Shown here piece by piece: positions 21,594 through 64,000 of a stretch of 64,000 nucleotides of DNA (within the stretch, counting starts at the first letter, position 1; every line of letters begins with the position of its first letter). Source of the stretch: Raja brachyura (lineage: Eukaryota); contig OY740788.1 of assembly GCA_963514005.1 (NCBI GenBank), positions 16,864,001 through 16,928,000 on the forward strand, read 5' to 3'. A program made the translations under genes and the position numbers. Below the pieces are notes generated by a model that saw only the letters and a list, made by a program, of their open reading frames with translations, was not told the origin of the DNA and did not search any database.

Positions 21594-23569
21594 TGTTTTT
21601 AATTTTTATTTTTTAGAAGGAATGTGACTAGACTACCAAATTGTGTAGCCAAAGAGTAAGTAAAAGAAATAAGGAAGGAATAGAGCAATAAAAAGACAAC
21701 AAAGAAAGAAAATGCGAAGTGATTATATACCTGCCTCGCATCCCGTAATTAGATTGAACTCCAAAATTGTGTTGTACCATACTATCCTTGTAATAAATCA
21801 ATGAATGGTGACCATGTCTTCGAAAAATGCTCTGGTTTTTCTGCTCAGACAAGTCTAATATTTTCAAGATGTAGCATCTCGGACATGTTTGTAATCCACA
21901 TGTTAAGAGTAGGGACAGATGTATGTTTCCAAAATTTGAGTATTCGTTTTTTCGCCGTTATTTGGCCATAATTAAGGAAATGTCTTTGAAATAATGATAG
22001 CTCAGAGCAGGCTTCTGACGTACGAAGAATAATCAATTATGTGTCAGGGTCCAATTTTGGTTTTTAATGTTTTTGAGAAAATTTCAAACATTTATCTCCA
22101 AAAATTATGTAACTTTATGCAAGAGGCGAAGGAATGTGTTATAGTTACTTCCTGAAGGAGATATTTATCACAAATAGAAGATACATTTGGAAAGATCTTA
22201 TTCGGTTTAGACTTTGAAAAGTAGAGTCTGTGCAGTATTTTAAATTGATTTAACGAATGTCTAACATTAATCGAACAATTGTGTATATATAAAACGTTTT
22301 CTTCCCATCTGTCTTTTAGAATTTTTTGGCCAAGTTCCTCTTCCCAGGCTCTTCTAATTACTTCTGACGGTGGGATTTCTATATTTAAAAGGGCGTTATA
22401 CAAATATGATGTTAATTTGTTTGACGCCGAATTTCTATTCATACATTCGTCTAGTATATCTGGCAGCAAAATTTGGTAGTCTTGAGTATATGCTTTCAGA
22501 TAGTCTTGAATTTGAAGGTATCTGAAATATTGATTACCTTTCAGGTGATATTTCGACTGTAATTCTTGAAATGAGAGAAGAGTTCCCATCTCATAAAGAT
22601 CGAGTTTTTTGATTCTTAATCTTTCCCAATATGTAAACATTTTGTCTATAATAGATGGCTTGAACCAAGGGTTATTGGCAATTGGTGAACGAAGGGATAC
22701 ATTTCTTAGTTTAAAGGTTGATCTCACTCGTGTCCAGATCCGTAAAGTACTGTGAAGAATCGGATTTTTTATCATATAATGTGTTCTTCAAATTTATTGG
22801 AGAGAGAAGAATCATGCCTATATTAAAAGGCGAACAATCCTCTCTATCCATTATTAACCAATCTACCTGTTGACCTGTATTGTCCAGCCAGTAGATTACG
22901 TTTTTATTATTCGTTGCCCAGTAATAATATAAAAAGTTGGGGAGAGCCAATCCACCCATTTCTTTGGGTTTACATTGATGCTGTTTATGAATTATATGTG
23001 TTTTATAATCCCAAATAAAGTTTGTAATCAGAGAATCAAGTTTTTTTAAAACAATTTTCGGAAGATGTATTGATTAGGTATTGATTGGAATAAATACAGG
23101 ATTTGTGGGAGGAAGATCATCTTTATAGCATTTATTCTGCCTATTAGAGACATCAGAAGTGTTTTCCAGAATTGAATAAGAGCATTTTAATTTAGTAACT
23201 AGAGGAGGGAAGTTTGCGTTGAATAGAGAATTATATTTTCCGGTTACCTGAACACCCAAATATTTGAATTTTTCTGTAGCAATTCTGAAAGGGAATTTTA
23301 GAAGGTGTGTCGGCTCTTGAGGTTTTATTGACATAATTTCACTTTTGTTCCGGTTTATTCTATATCCTGAAAAGGAACCAAGTTCCTCTATAAGATTTAA
23401 TATATTTAGAATGCTAACTTGGGAATTGGTGATATATAACAATACATCATCTGCATATAATGATATTTTATTATTGGAGTATTTAGAATTATAGCCGTGA
23501 ATGTTCGGATATACTCATACTTTCCGCTAGAGGTTCAATCGCAAGGGCAAATAACAGGATAATGCACTG
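21594..23569 (-). mobile_element. 5'-truncated L1-clade LINE (RT C-terminal half to 3' end)
   Basis: Minus-strand ORF pieces homologous to 900-2640 (ISLYADD, GGLALPNF); 14-bp TSD CCAATGGGAAATCC at 21580-21593 and 23570-23583. Confidence 0.92.
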
Positions 23570-27964: not shown

Positions 27965-29113
<1,149 letters not shown>

Positions 29114-32100
29114 TGATTCACTCGGGGTTCATTGCATTTATTTTAGGGCATTGGTAAAATGCGTTGTTTGGCCACATTAGCCAATAACGCGTATTTAATA
29201 ACGGCACGAAGCTCACCAATGCTTGTTCATTTGCTTGAACATCATACCTATAACATCCATAACTTGTTAATTTAAAACCGGTAAGACTAATTTGCAGTTT
29301 TTATTGTAGCACCACAATTAATGCATGAAATCGATGCATTCACATTATAATGTATTATATAAGCCCCAAATATAATTAATATAATATATATGTCCTAACT
29401 CCTATCGAGACTAAAAATACAAAATGTTTTTGGGTTTAAAAGAGTAGCACTTTTGTTGGTGATAAGTCGTGGCATTTCTAATTAAATTTCAGATGCACTC
29501 TTAATAAATTACAGATATTTATTTTCCCACCTAAATAAAAACATTTCCATTGCATGACACATTATTGCCCCTGGAATGCCCCAGTGCATTAGAAAGAAAG
29601 TGCATCCATTAGGTAAATCCATTAATGCACCAATTTTACTGATAAATACATGAATATCAATATTAAATAACATAGTTAATTTTCAATAGAAATATGTAAA
29701 CCTAATTGGGGTTTGGGATCTTTGGTGCTGTGTACACACTAAAACCATTGGGATAAATAAATAACATTGCTTTTCCAATAATAAAAGCCAGTTATTAGAT
29801 TACATGCAATTTGTTGAATTGCAGATAATTTAGGAACATTGATTTTATTCTTTGAACTGGTTTGTGCCTATCTGCATATAAATATATAAAACAAACCACC
29901 ATCGTTATTGGTATAAATATCTGCATCTCATATTAAATCCTTGTTCAAATGTATAAATTGTAATATAAAATACATTTTAATTGTAAACACATTTTATAGA
30001 CTTCCACAAACTGGATTTTGTAGTTGAGTGGGATTAAAGTGAGAATATCCTAATATTCCTGAGACATCTAACTTGTTGGATCAGGTAAATAAAATTTAAT
30101 GAATTTACTTGCGTGATAGTAAGACTTCAAAACAAAATATTTCAGGCTCAATGTTGTGCTGTTTCTTTGAAAAGTTAATGCCAGACGTTATTGATGTGTC
30201 TTTCTGTTTATTAATGAAACATAATTCATATATCTAATTTTTGGGGGGATTAACTTTTGTTATTTGTTCTATTTGAGGGAAGGCATGAAAGGAAGTGATA
30301 AGTTTAAAACCAGTGTGTAGCTAAAATATCATGATTATAAAGCAGTCAGAGAAATATGGGGTCAAGTGTGTTGTGGCTATTTACTGGTAAATATTGGCTT
30401 ACTGTAAATATTGATCCAATCTTGGCTCACTTGAAATTGAGAGTCCTTCAGAAGTCAAGCCATAGATTATTAATTTAGTTCCAAAACTTTTAAAATTTGA
30501 TGCCCGAAGCAAAGCATAGATTGGTTTGGGATTTTTAATGTTGGTATAGGTTTGAGACACAGTGATCTTGCCCAGTTCTAAACTAGTTGAGTTGTACTCT
30601 GTAACTGTGTGGTCAGTTACACTTTGGTTTGATTGACTGCAGCGTCGGAGATGACTGACTCGCCCAAAACTCTTTGGGTTTTCACAATGACAACAAACCA
30701 CACTTTGCATTGTTGAGTTGTGTCCAATTACAAATTATTAGTAACCTGTAAATAGTTTACACTGGTGATGATGTTGTCTTCAGATGGCTGAAATAATATG
30801 CAAAAATTACATCAACTAAATAAATATTGCTTAATGTTTGGTATTCAATTGGGTATGAATATTTCCCTTTTGCGATCCAAGAAAAATGCCTGTTTTAGTT
30901 GATTCCAGATGGATGTCAATCCACAGTATAAAAATGTCCAGTTTAAAATTAAACAAAGCTGGGAATTAGATAATTGTAAGATATCAGAATTAAGAAGTAT
31001 TGTTGTTAGTATTATTGTTGAATCTCTTCTCTGTAATCCAAACTATTGATGATCTGCTTTCATGCTAGCCTGGCGTGACATAGCAAAAACACTGTAACCT
31101 TATTTTAGCACAGGAGCATCAAAGTACCAACTTTTGTTATGGAAGTAGAACCTGAAATTGGAACTAAATTTTGACTATAGTATGGTATGTACAATCCAAA
31201 CTAGCATCTGCTTGGCTACAGCTAAATCCTTTATTTCCAATGGATGGGTGAGTAAATGGCAAATCGCACAAGGCAGATTGGAATGGGAATTTTGGGAACT
31301 GATTAATTATGTTGTAAATACCATGGAACAACTGGTATGAACTTCTTAATGTCAGGACAGTCTGTAAGTAAAATAAAAATCATAAAGCAGACAGATTTGG
31401 AAACTCAAAGGCAAGCAGATCAAGAACCATTTGTGTTCAGAATGAAATATTTGGTGACAAAGGTGGCCAATCAGCTTATCCTTTTGTTTTCTAGATCCAT
31501 TTTCTTCCCCTCTCTATTTCCATTTTATGTTGTTTTTCACTTTACTCTTTAGATTATTAATATTGTAGTTGATTCTATAGTCACCTGGCAATATATTGTG
31601 AAAATTATATCAAAACGCTGCAGTAAACCTCAATCTGCCCTTGCTTCTGCGAAATTACTTGCGTTTATCTAGCCTAAACTTTTTAAATGCAAAAATGCTT
31701 TCTTTTCATTTTGAGGACATTGTGTAATTTTAGTAGTGGTCAATCTCCAAGTGTATGAAATGCAACATGAGGTTAATAATTCACTTAAGTGACTGTTTTA
31801 TGTTTTTTGTTTAATAGAGTATGATTTAGAAAATACCATTATTTTACATGTTTTGCATGAGTAATAAATACAAGACCATTTTTATGAGAGTTAGGTAGAA
31901 GTACAGGTAAAGAAAATCTTAAGAGCTGCTAGTACATTATTAATGTGTTCCATTTAAGAAATATTTGAGTTTGTATTGATGAGTTCTGTCTGTATTAATA
32001 GTCAATGGTTGTCTAAATACTGTACCTCATTGTTCGCTTCACCAGAATCTCAAAAAATATGTCTGTCCAGTAAGTGAATGTGAAATGTAAGTAAATGTCC

Positions 32101-40307: not shown

Positions 40308-43300
40308 CCATATAACCATATAACCATATAACAATTACAGCACGGAAACAGGCCTTCTCGGCCCTTCCAGTCCGTGCCGACCATTTATTTTCCCCTAGTC
40401 CCATCTACCTGCACTCAGACCATACCCCTCCTTTCCCTTCCCGTCCATATACCTATCCACTTTACTTTTAAATGTTAAAATCGATCCTGCCTCCACCACT
40501 TCTGCTGGAAGATCATTCCACACAGCCACCACTCTCTGAGTAAAGAAGTTCCCCCTCATGTTACCTCTAAACTTCTGTCCCTTAATTCTCATGTCATGCC
40601 CTCTTGTTTGAATCTTCCATACCCTCAATGGGAAAAGCTTATCCACGTCAGCTCTGTCTATCCCTTCCATCATTTTAAAGACCTCAATCAAGTCCCCCCC
40701 CTTAACCTTCTGCGCTCCAAAGAATAAAGACCTAACTTGTTCAACCTTTCTCTGTAACTTAGTTGCTGGAACCCAGGCAACATTCTAGTAAATCTCCTCT
40801 ATACTCTCTCTATTTTGTTGACATCCTTCCTATAATTAGGCGACCAAAATTGTACACCATACTCCAGAATTGGTCTCACCAATGCCTTGTACAATTTTAA
40901 CATTACTTCCCTCCTATATTCCTATATTCAATGCTCTGATTTATAAAGGCCAGCACACCAAAAGCTTGCTTTACCACCCTATCTACATGCGATTCCACCT
41001 TCAGGGAACTATGCACAGTTATTCCTAGATCCCTCTGTTCCACAGCATTCCTCAATTCCCTACCATTTATCATGTACGTCCTATTTTGATTTGTCCTGCC
41101 AAGATGTAGCACCTCACACTTATCAGCATTAAACTCCATCTGCCATCTTTCAGCCCACTCTTCCAAATGGCCCAAATCTTTCTGTAGACTTTGAAAATCT
41201 ACTTCATTATCCACAGCACCACCTATCTTAGTATCATCTGCATATTTATCCAATTTTCCACCCCATCATCTAGATCATTGATGTACATGACAAACAACAG
41301 TGGACCCAACACAGATCCCTGAGGCACCCCACTGGTCACCGGCTTCCAACCTGACAAACAGCCATCCACCATTACTCTCTGGCATCTCCCATTCAGCACT
41401 GTTGAATCCATCTTGCTACTCCGCCATTAACACCCAAAGATTGAACCTTCTTAACCAACCTTCCATGGGGAACCTTGTCAAAGGCCTTACTGAAATCCAT
41501 ATAGCCAACATCCACTGCTTTACCCTCATCAATTTCCCTAGTAACCTCTTCAAAAAATTAAAGAAGGTTTGTCAAACATGACCTTCCAGGCACAAATCCA
41601 TGTTGACTGTTCTTGATCAGACCCTGTTTATCCAGATGCTTATATATATTACCTCTAAGTATCCTTTCCATTAATTTGCCCACCACTGATGTCAAACTAA
41701 CAGGTCTATAATTGCTAGGTTTATTCTTTGAACCCTTTTTAAACAATGGAACAACATGCGCAGTACGCCAATCCACTGGCACTATTCCCGTTTCTAATGA
41801 CATTTGAAATATTTCTGTCATAGCCCCTGCTATTTCTACACTAACTTCCCTCAATGTCCTAGGGAATATCCTGTCAGGACCTGGAGACTTATCCACTTTT
41901 ATATTTTTCAAAAGTGTCAGTACTTCCTCCTCTTTGAATCTCATAGTTTCCATAGCTACTCTACTTTTTTCCCTTACCTCACAGAGTTCAATATCCTTCT
42001 CCTTGGTGAATACCGAAGAAAAAAAAATTGTTCAATATCTCCCCCATCTCTTTTGGCTCTGCAGATAGCTGTCCATTCTGGCTCTCTAATGGTCCAATGT
42101 TATCCCTCGTTATCCTTTTGCTATTAATATAGCTGTAGAAACCCTTTGGCTTTACTTTCACCTTTCTTGCCAAAGCAACCTCATATCTTTTAGCTTTTCT
42201 TATTTCTTTCTTAAGATTCTTTTTACATTTTTTATACTCATCTAGCACCTCATTTACTCCATGCCTCCTATAATTATTGTAGATATCTCTCTTTTTTCGA
42301 TCCAAGTGTCCAATTTCCCTTGAAAACCATGGCTCTTTCTGATCTTTACTATTTCCTTTCATCCGAACAGTGACATAAAGATTCTGTACTCTTACAATTT
42401 CCCCTTTAAATGTCCTCCATTTCTCTTCTACATCCTTCCCATTAAACAAAATGTCCCAATTCACTCCTTTTACATCATTACGCATTCACTCAAAGTTAGC
42501 CTTTCTCCAATCAAAAATCTCAACCCTAGATCCAGTTCTGACTCTCTCCATAATTATATTCAAACTAATGGTATTGTGATCACTGGTCCCGAAGTGCTCA
42601 CCAACGCATACCTCCATCACCTGACCTGCCTCATTTCCTAACAGGAGGTCCAGCACTGCCCCTTCTCTGGTCAATACCTCTATGTATTGCTGCAAAAAAC
42701 TATCCTGCACACATTTAACAAACTCCAAACCATCCAGGCCATTTACAGAATGTGTTTTCCAGTCTATTTTTGGAAAATTGAAATCCACAATCACTACCTT
42801 GTGCTTACTACTAATATCTGCCATCTCCTTACAAATTAGCTCTTCCAATTCTCGCTTCCCATTTGGCGGTCGATAATACACCCCTAAAAGTGTTGCTACA
42901 CCGTTCCCACTTCTCAGCTCCACCCAAATAGCCACCCTAGAGGAGCCCTCTAATCTATCCTGCCAAAGCACTGCTGTAATATCTTCTCTGACAAGCAATG
43001 CAACCCCTCCACCTCTGGTTCCTCCAATTCTATCACACCTGAAGCAACGAAATCCTGGAATATTTAGTTTCCAATCACAACCCTCCCGCAACCATGTTTC
43101 ACTGATTGCCACAACATCATATTTCCAGGTGTCAATCCAGGCTCTAAGTTCATCCACCTTTCTTGCAATGCTCCTAGCATTAAAATATACACATTTTAGA
43201 AACCCACCATCCCTTATTCTCTGTTTATTATCTTTTTCCTCTTTCTCGCCTACATTTTGGGTCCGAGTGCTTCCCTTCTCTGCCTCTTGCCCTTCACCCT

Positions 43301-44260
43301 GTCCCCTAGCCCCCTGTACCCGAGTCCCTCCCCCCAGCCTTTCTAGTTTAAAATCTCCTTTGAAAATCTCCCCGCCAGGATATTGGTTCCCCTCGGGTTC
43401 AAGTGCAACACATCCTTTTTATACAGATCATGCCTTCCCCAAAAGAGGTCCCAGTGATCAAGAAACTTGAATCCCTGCCCACTGCACCAGTCCCTCAGCC
43501 ACGCATTTATCCTCCACCTCATTCCATTTCTACTCTCACTGTCACGTGGCAGTAATCCTGAAATTGTTACTCTTTTGGTCCTTCTCCTTAACTTTCCCCC
43601 CAACTCCCTAAATTCTCCTTTCAGGACCTCTTCTCTTTTTCTGCCTATGTCATTGGTACCAATGTGTACCACAACATCAGGCTCCTCTCCCTCCCGTTTC
43701 AAAATCTTTTCGTCATGTTCCGACACATCCGAGACCCTGGCACCAGAGAGGCAAACTACCATCCGGGTCTCCCGACTGCGTCCACAGAATCGCCAATCTG
43801 ACCCCCTAACTATGGAGTCCCCTATTACAATTGCCCTCCTCTTTTTGCTACCCTTCTGAGCATCAGGGCTATTCTCTGTGCCGGAGGCCCAGCTGCTGTT
43901 GCTGCCCCCAGGTAGGCTGTCCGCTCCAATCGAACTCAATCATGAGTACCTATTTTCCAGGTGTACAGCCACCGGGGTACTCTCTAGTCCCTGCCTCTGC
44001 CCCTTGCCCTTCCTAACAGTGACCCACTTGTCTGCCTCCCGTGGTCTGGGAGTGACCACCTCCCTGTAACTCCTGTCTACGACCTCCTCATTCTCTCTGA
44101 CCAGACAGAGGTCCTCGAGCTGTTGCTCCAGGTTCCTAACATAGTCCTTTAGAAGCCCCATCTTGACACACCTGGCTCAGATGTGGACGTCTGGAGGGCT
44201 GTCAGCTTCCCTGACCTCCCACATCTGACATCCACAACAGTACACTGCCCTGGCCTTCAT
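40308..44260 (-). mobile_element. Near full-length CR1 LINE: ORF1 (Zn finger/leucine zipper plus SGNH esterase) and ORF2 (APE endonuclease, RT), disrupted
   Basis: ORF1 from ATG 44260: YCCGC...I*ARC, then IGDSIVR, VHIGTNDIG, DVLHLN. ORF2: [35 protein letters not shown]. (TTATATGG)n tail at 40308-40332. Confidence 0.95.
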
Positions 44261-50383: not shown

Positions 50384-51933
50384 CAGTGCATTCAGAAAGT
50401 ATTCAGTCCCCTTCACTTTTTCCGCATTTTGTTACTTTAATTAGTCTAAAATGGATTAAATTCATTTATTTTATCATCAATCTATACACAATACCCCATA
50501 ATAAAAAAAAGCGAAAATGTGTTTAGAAATTTTTGCAAAGTAATAAAAAATAAATAACTGAAATATCACATTTTCATAAGTATTCAGACCCTATAGCCAG
50601 TACTTTGTAAGGGCATCTTCGGCAGCGATTACGACCTCTCGTGTTCTTGGGTATGATGCTACAAGCTTGGCACACCTGTATTTGGGTATTTTCTCCAAAT
50701 TTTCTCTGCAGATCGTCTCAAGCTCTGTCAGGTTGGATGGAGAGCATCGATGCACAGCTATTTTCAGGTCACTCCAGAGATATTCGATCGGGTTCAAGTC
50801 CAGGCTCTGGCTGGGCCACTCAAGAACATTCACAGACCTGTCACGAAGCCACTCCTGTGTTGTCTTGGCTGTGTGCTGTTGTTGTCCTGTTAGAAGATGA
50901 ACCTCTGCCCCAGTCTGAGTTCCTGAATGCTCTGGAGCAGGTTTTCATCAAGGATCTCTCTACTTTGCTCCATTCATCTTTCCCTCGATCCCTGATTTCC
51001 CAATTCCAGCCGCTGACAAATATCCCCACAGCATGATGCTGCCACGACCATGCTTCACCGTAAGTATGGTATTGGCCAGGTGATGAGCGCTGTCTGGTTT
51101 CCTCCAGATCTGACACTTGGCATTCAGGCCAAAGAGTTCAATCTTAGTTTCATCAGACCAGAGAATCTTGTTTAGGTGCGTTTTGGCAAACTCCAAGCGA
51201 AATTTGTGATTTTTACAGAGGAGTGGCTTCCGACTGACCACTCTACCATAAAGGCGTGGTTGGTGGAGTGCTGCAGACATAGTTGTCCCTCTGGAAGGTT
51301 CTCCCATCTCCACAGAGGAACTCTGGAGCTCTGTCAGAGTGACCATCAGGTTCTTGGTCACCTCCCTGACCGAAGCCCATCTCTCCCGATTGCTCAGTTT
51401 GGCCGGGCGGCCAGCTCTATGAAGAGTCCTGGTGGTTACAAAGTTCTTCCATTTAAGAATGACGGAGGCCACTGCTCGTCGGGACCAGCGATGCTGCAGA
51501 AATTGTTTCATACCCTTCCCGAGATCTGTGTCTCGACACAATCCTGTCTCGGAGGTCTATGGACAATTCCTTCATGTTCATGGCTTGGTTCTTGCTCTGT
51601 CGACTTAACACTTGTGGACCAATCAAGTTGTAGAACCATCTCAAGGATGATCAATGGAAACGGAATGCGCCGAAGCTCAATTTTAAGAGTCATAGCAAAG
51701 GGTCTGAATACTTTGTGTCATAGCGAAAGGTCTGAATACTGAATGTTATATTTCAGATTTAAAAAAATAATAATTTGCAAAGTTTTCTAAACACCTGTTT
51801 TCGCTTTTTTATTATGTATTGTGTGTAGATTAATGATTAAAGAAAAAAAAATCTAATCCATTTTAGAATAAGGCTGTAACGTTAATAAAACGTGGAAAAA
51901 GTGAAGGGGTCTGAATACTTTCTGAATGCACTG
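50384..51933 (-). mobile_element. Tc1/mariner IR/DR-type transposon with frameshifted transposase
   Basis: TA TSDs (50382-50383, 51934-51935); ~210-bp TIRs starting CAGTGCATTCAGAAAGTATTCAG with inner repeat AAGTATTCAGACCC; minus-strand LRDRIVSRHRS, GRPAKLS, ILWSDETKIELFG, WPSQSLDLNPIE. Confidence 0.96.
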
Positions 51934-52818
51934 TATGTCATTGGCCTGAGATGTTCACTTCATTTCTCTCTCCAGTGATGCTGCAAGGCCTGTTGTGTAT
52001 TTCCAGCATTTTTGCATATGAACTTTGATGCAATTGGGCATAGATTGAAATGGCCACTGTGCCACTACATTTACACAGCTCTAATACATCTTTCGGGTTC
52101 ACTAGAAATGATAGATCCTTGCAGTATGACAAGATTCAACTGCAACTATTATCCTCACTAAAACTCCTGTTCTCTATTCAACCAATATTAATTAAACATA
52201 GTATTTATCCCCTTTGAAAATACTGAAATTTCACTTTCCTGATGAACCTTCGTATACAATTTTGTTTTAAAGCCATGCCAAGTTTGAAGTGGAGCGTTTC
52301 AAATATGTCAATGACCCTCTTCATTACTGACATGACCTTAGCAAATTCAGCTGGACTGTTTTTGATTAATCCATGTTTCTCTAAATGCAGATTGCTGCTA
52401 TTAAATTTTTTTTCAGTAATTTGCCCAATACTAACTTTAGATGTTCAGTATATCCCTTTCATCTTTTTCCACAACAGTACCTCATTAGTTATTTTTCAGA
52501 CATTCACAGAACATAGAGCAGCACTGCACAGGAATCGGCAATTCGGCCCACAATGTCTGTACTTGTATGGAGCCGTTAAATTAATCTACTCTTCCTGTAT
52601 CAAATCCCTGCAAATTTCATTTCGGAGTCACGTGAGTGACTTCGTGAAGAACCCGCCAGCACGCATGCGCGACATATCATCGCTACGCATTGCAGTCGAC
52701 GGCTGGAGGTGGAGCGCGGCTCACCACCAGCCCTTCATAAGGGCCACTCGGGTAAGTACAGGCAACCTTGAGTTGGTTGTTCCTGCTGTTTTGAGTATTT
52801 TTTCTCTCCAACAGGAAC

Positions 52819-54543
52819 ATGGATAAGAGGAGTACGGGCCGCAGGATGTCCGAAAGGAGTCGCCGGCCACCTATCCTGGAGCCCTCTTCAACGGCAGCAC
52901 CCGCTAGACGGGCCGGGAAAAAGGCGCGTAAGTCGGGGAGCCCTGTATTCACAGGACCCGACCCACCGACACAGCTGAGCACTAGCGGGGATCCCGCAGA
53001 GCAGGAAGTCGGTACGGCGCCGGAGCAGGTAGACCCTGACTCCATTTCGTTCACGTGCTGCTGCACGGTCCTTCTCCCTGAGCCCTCGTGGCAGAGCCAG
53101 GGATAGAGCTCATCAACCTGGCCCTTTACGGGCAGAGGTTTCACCAGAGGCCGCTAGATTGCGGACTGGTGGATCATCGAGACCCGAGTCCACTGGCAGA
53201 CCAGGGAGGGCCAGTGTAGACTCACCACCCAGTAGGACCAGGAAGAGTCGCACAGGTGGAGTCTCGCCACGGTCACCGCGTCCCCCGTTGGCGGCAGGAC
53301 GGGACCGTACGCCATCTGGGTCCAGAATAAGGACAGTCGGCAAGCCCGCGCGGATGTCGGGTCACCACGCTGCGGCGTTGGGTGCCGACCTCTCACCGCA
53401 TTTGCCCTTAGAGGCAGCCGGGCCTAGCTCAGCCAAAAGGAGGCGTATGAGCAGATCCACGTGGGAGTCGTTCAGTTTCGCTGAGGCGGCTGGAAGCGAC
53501 ATTTCATCTCGGCACCGAAATTACCTCGATGAGGTACGGGCCGATGATAGGAGCCTCAGAAGTTCCTTCGGGCATGAGGACTCTGACCGCCCGTTCTCGC
53601 ATGACGAAGGGCGCATTGACAGGATGGAGAGGATGATGGAACAAATCCTGCAGCAAAATCAAAGGCGGGAAACATTCAGTTCCAGGGACTCATGGATATA
53701 TCCCCATCATCAATGGATAGCATGAGGCAGCCAGAAGAAGAGGAGATCTTGGTCCACGCACCAGTAGCACCTGAGGTCCCTCAGGAGGAACTCCTGGACG
53801 TAGCAGCCAAGTTTGCGTTACCCGAATCATCGGGACAACCCCTAAATACCAAACTGGCTGCTACCATTGATTTCCTCACAAACCATCAGCTACAGGAGCA
53901 GGTCCTTGCGGAGGCCATGAACAGACACAAGGCACCGGGTAATTGCAACTCCCTTAATGTGCCTATTGTGAACATGCCTATTTGGGGCAATATTAGCCCG
54001 GGCATTAGAGCACAGGAAGTGAAGTTACAAAGGATCCTGAAACTGCTCACTTCTGGGATTACCGCTTTTGCGAGGTCGATGGACAGTGTGGATTTGAACA
54101 CCGAGCAAGAGGATGCTCTGGCACTGCTATGCAACACGCATGAGATAAATGCGTTCAGGAAAAGCATTATCAAGCGTACATTAAACCCCAAATTTGCGGG
54201 GCTACGCAGAGCACCCCCAACACCACCCAGACAGCTATTCGGAGAAGACCTCCCAAAGCAGGTCAAGGTTTTGCATGACCATGCTAAGACAGTGGGTCTT
54301 ATGAGGTCACACACCTTGACCAGACAAACAGCCAGGAAAACACCATTCTTCAGGCCACGAGGTCAAACCGAAAGGCCAGCAAGGACCTACGTTCCAGCGC
54401 CTCCGCAATATCAGCAGCCTCAACAGCCCAGGCCTTTTTTAGGGCAAGGCCCGCAGCGGCCAGCATGGAAAATGTGGACTCCGCATTACCAGCACAACCC
54501 AGCACCTCCACGTCCCACCAAACATGTCAGGGACCACCGATAA
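52819..54543 (+). pseudogene. DIRS gag-like ORF1 (frameshifted pieces 52819-53106, 53159-53725, 53692-54543)
   Basis: Position in the element; low-complexity N-terminus, coiled coil (RIDRMERMMEQIL), P.NC..L.VP.VN..IW and LFGEDL motifs recalled from DIRS gag. Confidence 0.75.
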
Positions 54544-54545
54544 CC

Positions 54546-56399
54546 ATGAAGGTAAGGCGGTCTGGATTTCATGCACTTGCATGTCTAACCTCACATGTTG
54601 GGGGTAGACTACGGTTCTTTAAGGAGGCATGGGAAACCATCACTTCAGATGAGTTTATCTTACAAAGTATTCAAGGCCATGAGATTGAGTTCATAAATGG
54701 TCAAATTCCTCCACCTCAGCATATGCCGAATCGCAAATTTGCACTTTTCAGCAAGGAAACAGCAGTAGGCTATGCTGAAATCTTGAGACTACAAGGAAAA
54801 GGCGTGATAGAAAGAACTATACATGAACCAATTGAATTTGTATCTAACATATTCACAAAAACCAAGAAAGATGGAGGATGTCGGGTTATTATTAATCTGA
54901 CCCATTTGAATACTTTTGTAAAATATACCCATTTCAAAATGGACACATTCGAAACAGCCAAATCTTTGATTTCTGAGGGCTGCTTTATGGCATGCATTGA
55001 TTTAAAAGATGCATACTATTCAGTATCCATTCAGAAACATCACAGGAAGTTCTTGAAGTTTACCTGGATGGATCAGCTTTGGCATACAAAGCTTTGCCTA
55101 ATGGGCTTACCACAGCCCCCAGATTGTTTACTAAATTACTCAAGCCAGTGCTGGCAACACTGAGGAGGCAAAATCACATGGTTATGGCTTATCTGGATGA
55201 TATCCTAATCATTGGAAATACTCTGGAATCAGCAAAATTGGCAGTCTCAGCCACTGTGGAAATATTTCAAAAAATGGGATTCATTATCCATCCAGATAAA
55301 TCGAAGTTCTGTCCTTCACAGATCATGGATTATCTGGGATTCACGGTGGATTCCAATCGCATGATGGCCACCATACCAGCTAACAAAATTGGGGATGTCA
55401 TTCAAGCATGTAAGAATCTGGTCTGCGCCAGTATACCATCAATTAGACAAACTGCTAAGGTGATTGGGAAAATCGTAGCAGTTTTTCCAGCTGCTCAATT
55501 CGGACCTTTGCATTATCAAAATTTGCAAAGATCCAAGATTTCAGCGTTAAAATTGAACGCTGGACATTTCAATAGACCTATGCAGCTGCCTCTTAAGGCA
55601 AAAATTGAGTTACAATGGTGGATTGATAATATCCAAAACTCATTTAAACCCATCATTGTGCCTCGTCCGGTGGTATACTTACAAACAGACGCAAGCTCCC
55701 ATGGCTCCCATAAATTATTTGGAGATGCTAGGAGCATTTCACGGACTTAGAGCTTATTGATCAAACTTTACTGACACTCATGTCCGTCTCCAAATAGATA
55801 ATACCACTGTGGTGGCATATCTAAATCATATGGGCGGTACCAAGTCAATTTCATGTGATGAATTGGCAAATACAATTTGGCTCTGGTGCATACAACCGAA
55901 TATTTGGATTTCAGCTACCTATTTACCAGGTAAGCTCAATACAGTGCCGGACACCAGGTCACGGAAATTTAATGACAACATCGAGTGGATGTTAAATCCT
56001 CAAATATTCGCAAAAATTACAGCCAAATTTGGTAAACCGGATATTGACCTTTTTGCGTCACGGTTGAACCATCAGGTACCAACATACGTATCATGGGAGC
56101 CAGATCCTGGGGCAATGGCGATGGACGCTTTCTCGCTAGACTGGGGGAAATGGTTTTTCTATGCATTTCCTCCATTTTGCCTCATCAGTCGGGTATTGCG
56201 GAAAATCCAGTTAGATGCTGCTAAAGGCATTCTTATCATACCCGACTGGCCTACGCAGCCATGGTATCCGGTGGTCCTTGATATGATCAGTCAACCATGG
56301 GTCCTCTTAGAGGGTTGTCCACAACTGGTGACGAACCCTGTTTCAGGGGAACTACATCCCTGCCATAGTCACTTAAAATTATTGGCTTGCAGGTTCTGA
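54546..56399 (+). pseudogene. DIRS pol: reverse transcriptase, RNase H and Dam-like N6-adenine methyltransferase domain (frameshifted, short RNase H deletion)
   Basis: IDLKDAYY, LPNGL..APRLFTK, AYLDDILI, LQTDAS, IDNTTVVAYLN..GG, DIDLFASRLN, YAFPPF. Confidence 0.92.
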
Positions 56400-57376
56400 A
56401 CAGACCACTACTGCAGTATGGTCTATCATCAAGGACAATGGATACAATTGGAGCATCATGCAGGGAGTCCACAAGACGGTAATATCTAACGCATATCAGG
56501 AAATGGGAAACCTACTGCGGCCGCTCCAACATTGCATATGACTCCGTTACTATCACAGATGTGCTGGAATTCCTTGCGGGGTTGCATCATGACGAACACC
56601 TCAGCTACAGTGCCATCAACAGCGCCAGGAGTGCGCTATCATTCTACCTCAATATTGAGGTAGGATCCAATAAGCTGGTGTCCAAACTTATGCGGGGAAT
56701 ATTTAATTCCAATCCGCCAAGACCTCGTTACAACGTCACCTGGGATATTGGGATAGTACTAACCCTGCTCAGGACGTGGTCGCCCATGGAAAGGCTTGAA
56801 TTGGACAAACTCACCCTGAAGCTGGTGATGTTATTGGCACTTACTTCAGTGCAAAGGGTACAGACACTTCACAAGGTCAAGATTGACAGAATGATCTCTA
56901 CCCCAGAAAAAGTAATCTTCTTTGTTGATGAATTACTTAAGCAGCATAGACCTGGATACACAGGGCTGCAGCTGGTGTTTCCAGCATACCCCGCTGATGC
57001 TAGGCTATGTTTAGCCACCCATATCCGCCACTATATAAGAGTGACGCGGAAATTAAGGGGAATGGAAAAATATCTGCTAATCAGCCACAAAAAACCTCAC
57101 CATAGAGTGACAGCACAGATGATCTCCAGATGGCTCAGGATCGTCTTGAACGAAGCAGGTATTGACACTAATGTCTTTAAATCCCATTCCACCAGGGCTG
57201 CATCGACGTCCGCGGCAAAGGTCATGGAGGTGCCCATGGACCATATTCTTGCCACAGCGGGATGGGCCAGAGAAGCCACCTTTCAACGGTTTTATAATAA
57301 ACCTGTTACCGCTCCTGTATTGTTCGCAGAGGCCGTGCTGAATGCGGGTCAAGAGCATACAGATTCTCCCCAGTGA
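56393..57376 (+). pseudogene. DIRS tyrosine recombinase (one in-frame stop at 56480-56482)
   Basis: Catalytic residues: QRVQTL (R), HSTRAAS (HxxR), AGW, FQRFYNK (Y); N-terminal YGLSSRTMDTIGASCRESTRR*YLTHIRKW is in the same frame. Confidence 0.93.
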
Positions 57377-58674
57377 GGGGTTTTTTCTTTGTTGTTATTA
57401 ATAAATATTATTATTTTTCAGTACAAGCAGTCCGAAAATGTGATTACTCCTATCCATCCTTTCAGTGGCGTTTGTGACAGCATGGACGTTGTCCAGGGCA
57501 TGAAATCACAGAGCTTTGAAGTCTTCACGAAGTCACTCACGTGACTCCGAAATGAAATAGTAAGATTAAACGAGAACTTACCAGTTTGAAGTTTGACCTT
57601 TATTTTATGAGGAGTTGCGATGAGGGATTTCGTGCCCTCCGCTCCCAACCCTCGATCATAAAGTCAACTGGTAATTTGGAGTCTCTTCAATCTTACTATA
57701 ACAAGTCATTTCTTTGTTTGTTGGTTCTGTGATTCCACACTGCTGCTTTGAAGAATGTCGCGCATGCGTGCTGGCGGGTTCTTCACGAAATCCCTCATCG
57801 CAACTCCTCATAAAATAAAGATCAAACTTCAAACTGGTAAGTTCTCATTTAATCTTACTATCAATGTGTCTTTTTAAGGTCTCTTAAATGCCGCTGTTTC
57901 CACCACCACCATATCTGCTTCCACACCCCTGGTAGCCTTCTCCAGGTACCAATCACTCTGTATAAAAAAAGACTTGCCTCACACATTATTTTGAAACTTT
58001 TCCCCTCTTACCTTAAAGCTGTCCCCTCTAGTGTTTGATATTTCTACCCTGGGGGGAAAAAGGTTCTGACTGTCCATTATATCTATTTCAATTTTATATT
58101 AAACTTTCGGTTCTCCCATCACCTTCGATGCTCTGGAGAAAACTCCAGGTTTGTCCAACCTCTCCTTTTAGCTAATTCTGTATCTTCTAATCCAGGAAGA
58201 ATTCTGGCAAACCTCTTCTGTGCTGCACACAATATTGCAAATGTGGGCTGACTAAAGTTTTTGTAAAGCTGCAACATGACTCTTATACTCAGTATGCCGA
58301 CTGATGAAGGCAAGCATGCCATACGCCTTCTTTACCACTCTATTGACTTGTGTTGCCACTTTCAGGGAGCTATGGACTTGACCCCCAAGATCCCTCTGTA
58401 CATCAATGGTCTTAAGAGGCATGCTATTAACTCTATTCTTTCCCTGACCTTCAACCTCCCAACCTGCAATATCTCACACTTACTCAAACTCCATCTGCTA
58501 TTTCTCCACTCATATCTGCAACCGATCTATATTTTTCTATATACTTTGACGGCTTTTCTCACTGGCCAAAGAACTGAGGTTCCATGGAATAGTAATTAGA
58601 GCTAAACCAGATCTTCTGGAAGTTTATTTGAACCTTAATGTGTTTTGTGGACAATACATAGTAGCTGGAGACAT

Positions 58675-62310: not shown

Positions 62311-62481
62311 CCAGGCACTTGACACTGTGATCATTCTGTAGGATTCCATGTGACGTCCAGTTCCTGCTCTAATTCCTGTTACTTCCAATATAATTTAATG
62401 GAAATTCAGGTGAGAGAGACATTTAACCACTACTGGAGGTTTAAAATATCCTTGGCTTATGTGCCATGGGTTCAATTGACA

Positions 62482-63900
62482 TTTCATTTCGGAGTAACGC
62501 GAGTGATTCCGTGAAGAAGCCGCCAGCCCGCATGCGCGACAATATGCCGACGCATGGCGCAATGCTGACTGGCAGGCGCGCTGCTCCTGCCAGCGGTAAG
62601 TTTAAACCTGAAGGTAAGTTTTTAGACTTTTCAGGTCAGGCTTCCATTGCAGGAATCTCTCTTACAGAGTTTCCTGCTGGATTTCGGGGCGAAGTCGGGA
62701 CCGCGGGGAAACCTTGATGGACCGCGGGGAATCCCAGTCATGGACTGGTGTGAATCCTGGTCATGACCTCGGGTAATCCCGGCCTTGGACCGCAGGGAAC
62801 CCGCTACGACGACCGCGGGAAACCCGCTACGGAGACCATGGGGAACCCGCTACGGGGACCACGGAAGTGCGGGTAGCGGCGGCGGTCAAATTCGCCTTCA
62901 CAGTCACTGCCGGTGGAGTCAGCGGCTTCAGACTCACGCCGGCAGCACCTTGGCAAAACCCACTCGGAGGGCAGCCACGGAGAAAGTATGTGCGGCCCGT
63001 TGACTCAAACGAGTCGGGCCAGGAGGATTCCTATGGAGAGGATCCCCTCCTTTAATGGGTAACGTTCTTTGGACGTCAAACCCACATGGAGCACCTGATG
63101 GAGAGGTGAGGCTCCAGGGAGGGAGTTATATCACCACGGGTCTCTGCGGGGCCCGCGGCAACAGCATCTGTGTACAGGGCTGCACACTGTCTCCCTCTCT
63201 GAAGAGGGGAGCAGTCGGGGTCAGTTCTGTCTGACTCGGAGTTTGGAGGTATTGCCAGGAGCATACCACGAGGCACGAAGGATATGGTCCGTGGAGGATC
63301 AGCACAGGTCTCCTTAGGGCCTGCGGCAACAGCAGCTGTGGACAGTGCTGCACACTGACACCCTCTCTGAGCAGGGGAGCAATCGGGGTCAGTGTGTAAC
63401 TGACTCCAAACACGGAAGTATGTCCGTGGCACATACTGGAGTTCCTGAAAGTACCGGCAGTGAACAGTGCTATCAGGGGTGACGTTGGAGGGGCATGGTA
63501 CCCCAGGAAACCAGCCGCCGTATCTGCTATTCAGGTAAAACCTATTCAACAGGTGAGACCTGCATGAGGGAGCTAAAACTATTGAACTACAAGTACAGCC
63601 TCATCATTTCGGCGACAATACACCCCACACCTCCATCGACAGCAAGCGGTTCACTGAAGCTGGTGGCAGCCAGCAAGCTGGGCACAGGGCTTTAGGTCAA
63701 GGCCCAAGCCGATCTCAGGTAAAATATGGGATCCACGTACCGTACCAGTCCTCTCCAACCAAGGATGGAAATAGAACTCCATGAGGAGCCTTTGGGCTTA
63801 CCATACGACCACCGGTAGCCATGAAGGTAGGTGGGTCTGGTTCTTTCCGAAACATGGGGTATGTGGACCATTTACAAGTTGGAAACACTTGTAAAAACCT
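62482..63900 (+). mobile_element. Third, divergent DIRS1-type element: left end, deleted gag, pol start (copy 3)
   Basis: TTTCATTTCGGAGTAACGCGAGTGATTCCGTGAAGAAGCCGCCAGCCCGCATGCGCGACA matches the other left ends; TAGCCATGAAGGTAGGTGGGTCTGG at 63816 matches the gag/pol junction. Right boundary uncertain. Confidence 0.85.
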
Positions 63901-64000
63901 GCAAACAACCTTGTTGTTATGAAGCAGCCTCTATTCATCAAGAGTATTGGCAATATAGTGGCTGTGTTTTCAGCTGTGCATTTCGACCTTTGCATTATCA

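Follow-up and report, generated by a model that had tools for sequence, protein, structure and literature searches.

Splicing and frameshifting as candidate routes to pol and recombinase in a DIRS1-like retrotransposon of Raja brachyura

A DIRS1-like element and its relatives

The window analysed here is a stretch of 64,000 nucleotides from Raja brachyura (assembly GCA_963514005.1, contig OY740788.1, positions 16,864,001 to 16,928,000), which carries three copies of DIRS retrotransposons. Among them, copy 2 (52614-57861) is a decayed DIRS1-like element with 20 close full-length copies in the genome (2.7 Gb searched), and it is the subject of this report; all the DIRS features of the window given below lie on the forward strand. 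In this element the coding regions for reverse transcriptase (RT), RNase H (RH) and a methyltransferase (MT) are enclosed by a predicted GT-AG intron, the removal of which would join the end of gag to the tyrosine recombinase (YR), and a slippery heptamer upstream of the donor would give ribosomes access to both enzymes.

Copy 2 opens with a left inverted terminal repeat (52614-52675), complementary both to 57522-57558, in the left and right internal complementary region (ICR, 57522-57634), and to 57755-57797, in the right terminal repeat with its extension (57755-57861). A candidate 63-nt leader intron (52752-52814), with a GG|GTAAGT donor and a pyrimidine-rich CAG acceptor, precedes the gag ATG at 52820. 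Similar candidate short leader introns occur in the other two copies of the window (9073-9110 and ~62614-62667) as well as in other families of this genome, and no genomic copy devoid of the leader intron was found. The gag open reading frame (ORF) is broken in its 5' part; its 3' part (53620-54543) ends with the TAA at 54541-54543, homologous ORFs precede pol in related loci, and a Pfam search of the copy 2 gag ORF gave no match. Pol follows with the RT and RNase H coding region (54546-55750), interrupted near 55083 and again by the deletion at 55706/55710, and ends with a Dam-like MT (55761-56399), which the recombinase exon (56393-57376) overlaps.

Regarding protein families, RVT_1 matches pol with an E-value of 1.7e-15 and the phage-integrase family PF00589 matches the recombinase with 29.4 bits, above its cut-off of 27.1; the MT match (PF05869, E 1.2e-4) lies below the curated cut-off, and PF17917 was found on homologs of the RNase H region. 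In the recombinase, which has the catalytic R-H-R-Y set, R125, R238, W261 and Y271 are invariant and H235 is nearly so among 38 homologs, the closest named homolog coming from a skate. With its tyrosine recombinase, RT-RH-MT pol and inverted termini combined with an ICR, copy 2 belongs to the DIRS1-like superfamily, whose gag, RT-RH-MT, YR, inverted termini and ICR, as given in the accessible parts of two surveys (Piednoel et al. 2011, PMC3266345; Gazolla et al., PMC9210276), are those of copy 2. An Ngaro or PAT-like identity is ruled out by the inverted termini with ICR and by the MT, which Ngaro lacks, and self-comparison of the window revealed no direct terminal repeat.

The two other copies, copy 1 (8944-12751, RT-deleted, with a slippery run at 10448-10454 and its acceptor region deleted) and copy 3 (62481-64000, degenerate and RT-less, extending beyond the window end), are members of RT-deleted, non-autonomous families related to copy 2. 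A stop-CC-ATG-RAG-GTA motif has just three matches in the window on both strands, at 10576-10592 in copy 1, 54541-54557 in copy 2 and 63816-63832 in copy 3, exactly as an earlier note on this DNA had claimed. As copies 1 and 3 are related to copy 2, the three copies are not independent evidence.

A predicted GT-AG intron spanning pol

In copy 2, the predicted intron (54552-56392) runs from the donor AAG|GTAAGG, located just behind the gag stop and an ATG (54546-54548) that starts two bases past it, to the acceptor TTGCAG|G. TTGGCTTGCAG has its end at 56392 and the frame that starts at 56393 is the YR frame, so this part of the earlier note is borne out by the sequence. Both sites are in phase 0, and the GT-AG ends, the consensus context and the preserved frame are those of a U2-type spliceosomal intron. 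The YR frame is closed by a stop at 56366-56368, eight codons upstream of the acceptor, from which a 335-codon open frame begins in most copies.

Several claims of the earlier note hold with qualifications. The predicted splice does join in phase and in frame to the recombinase, but copy 2 itself carries an in-frame stop at 56480-56482, 29 codons past the acceptor, which the earlier reading had overlooked. Since the YR frame is open for at least 30 codons in 19 of the 20 close copies (and for 326-327 codons in nine), this stop is specific to copy 2. Likewise, the ATG of the unspliced RNA lies in the pol frame and leads into RT, but this frame is broken near 55083; and the proposed intron size of about 1.84 kb holds for copy 2 (1841 nt), where the deletion at 55706/55710 explains it, but is not typical, since the intron measures 1910-1916 nt in six close copies. 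Of the 20 genomic copies that match best, all keep the donor and the ATG and 18 keep the CAG acceptor; the unspliced 18-letter donor motif is present 1600 times genome-wide.

Genomic copies carrying the exact join

A probe made of the donor and acceptor sides, with a gap of 0-6 allowed, found the predicted join (54551 to 56393) at 87 places in the genome, all with a gap of 0; a variant junction probe matched 88 places and a reversed-pattern control none. All 40 of the 87 places that were examined are pol-less DIRS copies from sister subfamilies. When these copies are aligned to the window, the upstream part ends at 54553 and the downstream part resumes at 56388, each in 39/40 cases, an overlap explained by the AGGT common to both sites. 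The left terminus and the leader intron are retained in one joined copy read to its 5' end.

The joined copies form two lineages, S1 (38 copies) and S2 (two copies), which are 81.5% alike upstream of the join. Their unspliced relatives differ: one subfamily is 93% like S1, and another holds the nearest relatives of the two S2 copies, at 97-98%. The junction letters of each lineage recur in unspliced copies that have intact sites. S1 is moreover a mosaic, its 5' exon resembling one subfamily and its 3' exon grouping with the parents of S2, and this lineage is probably recombinant; the joined copies would have had at least one origin and probably two. A third joined copy of the GAG type is a point variant of S1. 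The shortened T-run of this larger lineage was considered as a feature of spliced copies and ruled out, as unspliced relatives carry it. The stricter first probe, built with the flanks of the window's own subfamily, found no joined copy in the genome, and a single match of a loose probe for other families proved to be unrelated DNA, matched by chance. In four contig sets, the 15 joints listed of 52 did not include the predicted one, which is evidence neither way. We read the precise loss of a GT-AG segment that had been predicted beforehand as the probable trace of a reverse-transcribed spliced RNA, an origin by deletion being formally possible.

Conservation of the splice sites across families

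For comparison, we assembled seven families of this genome together with loci from 80 metagenome matches and represented the families by loci hand-picked out of 101 (35 for donors and 47 for acceptors), copies with indels near the anchors being excluded from the family tables. Donors were sought in the 120 nt preceding the first conserved motif of pol, with 481 windows in the pol body as controls and a matrix built from generally known base frequencies of splice sites; the families being related, no P values are given. The best donor reaches at least 8 bits in 24 of the 35 families versus 19 of the 481 control windows, and it is in pol phase 0 in 30/35 versus 186/481. In every scorable family (21/21), this donor lies 11-44 nt past the gag stop.

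On the acceptor side, a YAG stands at the site homologous to 56393 in 15 of 15 families with a stop in the YR frame no more than 15 codons upstream, but in only two of the 32 families where this frame is open. In the open families the best acceptor is in phase 0 in 24/32, mostly about 200-216 nt upstream, and its TAG frequently doubles as the stop from which the YR frame begins. Codon choice at this upstream place is biased as well: the serine following the MT motif FPPF is coded by AGY in 14/18 cases, compared with 141/569 in RT and RH. A comparison of DIRS families, which the earlier note had proposed as a check, shows donor and phase-0 acceptor in most of them. The note's claim that pol is removed as one intron, with the given donor, acceptor and phase, is supported, down to the nucleotide, by the 87 exact joins and by cross-family conservation, with the caveat of a 4-nt microhomology at the join.

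Gene models offer a further comparison. Four RefSeq models of two echinoderms, Amphiura filiformis and Diadema antillarum (P0052, P0156, P0122 and P0123), found among about 330 homologs and, being predictions, lending weak support, read through gag into an FFR-linker that closes with a glutamate, and then directly into YR from the residue homologous to 56393; a sibling model continues with Glu-Val, as a GAG|GT donor predicts. In addition, tandem donors four bases apart, in phase 0 and phase 1, are present in four loci (L073, L083, L084 and L111), and in the shut-frame clade another strong phase-0 acceptor precedes the main one by 330 nt, which suggests that further isoforms may be made.

A long-range duplex near the donor

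In copy 2, a 26-nt arm at the end of the exon before the donor (54523-54548), covering the gag stop and the ATG, can pair with a right arm in the MT coding sequence (56260-56285), about 110 nt before the acceptor and lost on splicing. The energy of this duplex is about -43 to -52 kcal/mol and its partner ranks first among about 215 windows, a result confined to this subfamily group. Present in the subfamily group that yielded the joined copies and absent in most others, the duplex is ruled out as a general feature across families. Its effect could be to modulate splicing or to mask the ATG, or it may simply hold those letters fixed.

The duplex also bears on another origin of the joined copies, namely jumps of the reverse transcriptase over AGGT, which the duplex would aid, with no use of the spliceosome and with YR starting at the internal ATG 56438 on another RNA. 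Such jumps would agree with the microhomology, with the confinement of joined copies to the subfamily group that has the duplex, with the frequency of other internal deletions and with the context of ATG 56438 (A at -3, G at +4). However, the segment looped out by the duplex would be 54549-56259 or the entire stem, not 54552-56392, the join was predicted before its discovery, and jumps leave unexplained both the strong phase-0 donors of 24/35 families and the codon bias at the acceptor. Furthermore, several families have the first methionine of YR only after 39-87 codons or more, inside the N-terminal domain, so that ATG 56438 is no general solution. We regard this origin as very improbable, and a splice at this junction as very likely to be in use.

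Entry into the pol frame

Pol lies in the -1 frame relative to gag in 32 of the 35 families, in the same frame in three and in the +1 frame in none, the calls from some truncated contigs being weak. In copy 2, a U_UUU_UUA heptamer in the gag frame (54435-54441), overlooked by the earlier reading and located 111 nt upstream of ATG 54546, would be the site of a programmed -1 frameshift. It is kept in 19 of the 20 close copies, and more broadly U_UUU_UUA or A_AAA_AAC is found in the gag frame of the overlap in 18 of the 20 families with a long gag ORF, while the other frames and the remaining 21,151 nt of gag have neither heptamer. From this point the pol frame, open from 54288, encodes a linker (54435-54551) that would be common to Gag-Pol and to the spliced product, the same FFR-linker that precedes YR in the RefSeq models.

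The U run could also be taken, together with the AG at 54442, for a 3' splice site serving the leader donor, in which case gag would be spliced out first and pol or YR translated from a downstream ATG, giving three mRNAs without any frameshift. The families of this genome do have a strong leader donor (52751/52752), and a G follows U_UUU_UUA in most families. Nevertheless, A_AAA_AAC stands there in four families, and not every U_UUU_UUA site is followed by G. In addition, the run never leaves the gag frame, a strong donor is missing from most invertebrate leaders, and the genome yielded no copy joined from the leader to 54442. That two heptamers interchange at one position favours a frameshift and disfavours an acceptor, and we hold a leader splice to this site to be highly improbable.

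The earlier note had assigned to the ATG at 54546 the role of starting both pol and recombinase. As a general mechanism this is not supported: in 16 of the 22 families with a strong donor there is no methionine between the linker start and the donor, in family B of this same genome the gag stop runs directly into the donor and the ATG is absent, and stop-CC-ATG is confined to one clade, whereas the heptamer is present in 18/20 families. Nor is this ATG the earliest AUG in the pol frame, another in good context being present at 54465.

Within the clade of the window, ribosomes stopping at the gag TAA could still reinitiate at this ATG on either RNA, giving free Pol and, after a genuine splice, free recombinase, possibly beside the frameshift. 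The ATG is kept in 20/20 close copies and in all subfamilies of the clade despite linkers only about 50-59% identical, ATG-CAG|GT occurs with equal spacing in one same-frame family, and the duplex over the ATG loses its partner on splicing; the distance between stop and start also resembles that of termination-reinitiation sites. Reinitiation must be set against the 16/22 families without such a methionine, family B included, the retention of the slippery heptamer in the same clade (19/20 copies), the earlier AUG at 54465 and the conserved Pro-Trp codons of MT, pairing with which could also fix the letters of the ATG. We consider reinitiation as the main route unlikely, while ATG 54546 may be a second, clade-specific one. 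A -1 frameshift at the heptamer remains our preferred explanation for Gag-Pol, and we hold it with considerable confidence.

Three families of this genome (L158, L159, L164, L165, L166 and L167) have gag and pol in one frame without a gag stop. Their phase-0 donor at the gag-pol boundary, strong in one family and weak in two, would give Gag-YR without any shift.

Two further observations concern slippery sites. In most sampled copies of one subfamily (L241-L250, L271-L290), the T-run at the slippery site is two bases shorter and the acceptor is not YAG, so that the two sites seem to have been lost together. In another locus (L086, 1-2590), gag, A_AAA_AAC and about 60 pol codons are followed by YR in frame; this was rejected as a spliced copy and is uncounted, since its join is placed elsewhere than at the conserved donor and the locus lacks an unspliced counterpart, and it could reflect a second splice or a deletion.

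A proposed expression plan

Taken together, the anatomy of the element, the exact joins in DNA and the conservation of donor, acceptor and heptamer suggest that one promoter and two switches could supply all the proteins of DIRS1-like elements in this animal lineage. At the first switch, a -1 frameshift near the end of gag would bring a minority of ribosomes into the pol-frame linker. At the second, the phase-0 donor behind the gag stop would be used by the spliceosome to remove RT, RNase H and MT and to connect the linker to the recombinase exon, as seen in the joined DNA copies. The unspliced RNA would thus be the genome and the message for Gag and Gag-Pol, and the spliced RNA the message for Gag and, through the same slip, for Gag-YR. 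As both enzymes would carry Gag, they could be packaged without a protease. The spliced RNA would keep both termini and the ICR, and its occasional copying in trans appears to have founded the pol-less, non-autonomous lineages. With the donor within 50 nt of the gag stop, it would also be spared nonsense-mediated decay.

Several points weigh against this plan. A strong donor is missing in 11/35 families, and the 15 shut-frame families form one clade (support 0.99), hence one evolutionary event. The joined copies belong to one subfamily group only, probes for six other families having found none; they could have a single origin, since S1 looks recombinant, and a deletion between the four letters shared by donor and acceptor would produce an identical join. 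The RefSeq models are predictions that bridge the frameshift by an invented intron, and others join MT to YR at other donors. The 3' stimulatory structure expected of a frameshift site is weak overall (z below -1.5 in 6/24 cases versus 3/24 upstream, and -1.8 in the window, in a calculation of pseudoknot-free folding), and the ATG is conserved across the clade of the window as described above.

On balance, we favour the combined plan, in which frameshift and splice together yield Gag-Pol and Gag-YR, and we consider it likely that Gag-YR is the main recombinase product. Somewhat less firmly, the comparison leans towards a wider statement: across animal DIRS1-like elements, one frameshift site may feed two enzymes chosen by splicing, with the shift rate multiplied by the splice rate setting the Gag:Pol:YR ratio of a protease-less particle and the spliced RNA spared from decay, and with the long YR/pol overlaps being in part by-products of the acceptor position.

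Such a plan would account, with predictions at the nucleotide level, for the expression of three overlapping ORFs from one RNA in DIRS, a retrotransposon order abundant in fish, amphibians and marine invertebrates. The recombinase form predicted here is Gag-linked and starts upstream of the annotated ATGs, which is relevant to the biochemistry of the enzyme. Moreover, a large number of natural -1 frameshift sites would be added to those available, a class of pol-less non-autonomous copies would find its explanation, and the misannotation of these loci by gene predictors would be accounted for.

Other features of the window and genome

Besides the DIRS copies, the window contains a host exon (27965-29116) encoding a protein of the CCDC85 family (PF10226, E 2.8e-91). 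The segments 414-2122, 7580-8725, 22092-22787, 41558-43939 and 50960-51556 hold what we take, from generally known motifs, to be fragments resembling LINE ORFs, including one whose ORF1 is esterase-like, together with a Tc1-like transposase. Elsewhere, two copies of one DIRS element stand tail to tail in inverted orientation (L101, 1995-9976), and seven near-identical recombinase matches at ~70-105 kb spacing (G000:C14, 44.58-45.05 Mb) are probably a segmental array. No relative of the element was found in the viral contigs.

Comparison with known systems

Surveys of DIRS elements describe three, often overlapping, ORFs, and their accessible text mentions neither splicing nor programmed frameshifting, the word frameshift being applied there to decayed copies (PMC3266345, PMC9210276). 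In the open literature, as far as its text is accessible (including PMC7192593, PMC4157794, PMC5633606, PMC9940879, PMC4495291 and PMC13465315), we found no description of such a splice or of a gag-pol slippery site for DIRS, nor any account of the way in which their three overlapping ORFs are expressed from one RNA; subscription reviews, Repbase notes and supplements fall outside this scope and may hold a prior mention. The plan proposed here would combine two devices of retroviral type in a combination that we did not find described.

For Ngaro, programmed frameshifting has been proposed as the access to YR (Poulter and Butler 2015, as quoted in the accessible text of PMC13003380). The two proposals differ in that the Ngaro shift would occur at the RT/RH-YR overlap with no splice, whereas the DIRS shift would occur between gag and pol and be complemented by a splice.

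Regarding the slippery sites, the accessible text of PMC5009743 gives U_UUU_UUA as the shift site of HIV and A_AAA_AAC as one of the most shift-prone heptamers. The DIRS elements studied here thus have the same heptamers as gag-pol sites of the HIV-1/MMTV type. At the HIV-1 slip, FLG is read in the zero frame and FFR in the -1 frame, matching the DIRS linker. The DIRS sites differ in that no protease is seen, the stimulatory structure is weak or variable, and the sequence read after the slip would be switched by splicing.

Regarding the intron, spliced RNAs that omit pol are known from several retroelements. In Ty1/copia elements such as Drosophila copia and Arabidopsis EVD, pol is spliced out of the genomic RNA to yield Gag alone, the integrase being encoded inside pol; the DIRS elements would likewise splice pol from their genomic RNA, with a product other than Gag alone. 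In retroviruses, one intron removes pol for the expression of a 3' gene, as in the env mRNA (that of avian leukosis virus sharing the gag start codons), and foamy viruses express pol from a spliced mRNA. A single intron would similarly remove pol for a 3' gene in DIRS elements, but their spliced RNA would keep gag whole, its 3' gene would be the integrating enzyme, and the frame of this enzyme would be reached by frameshifting.

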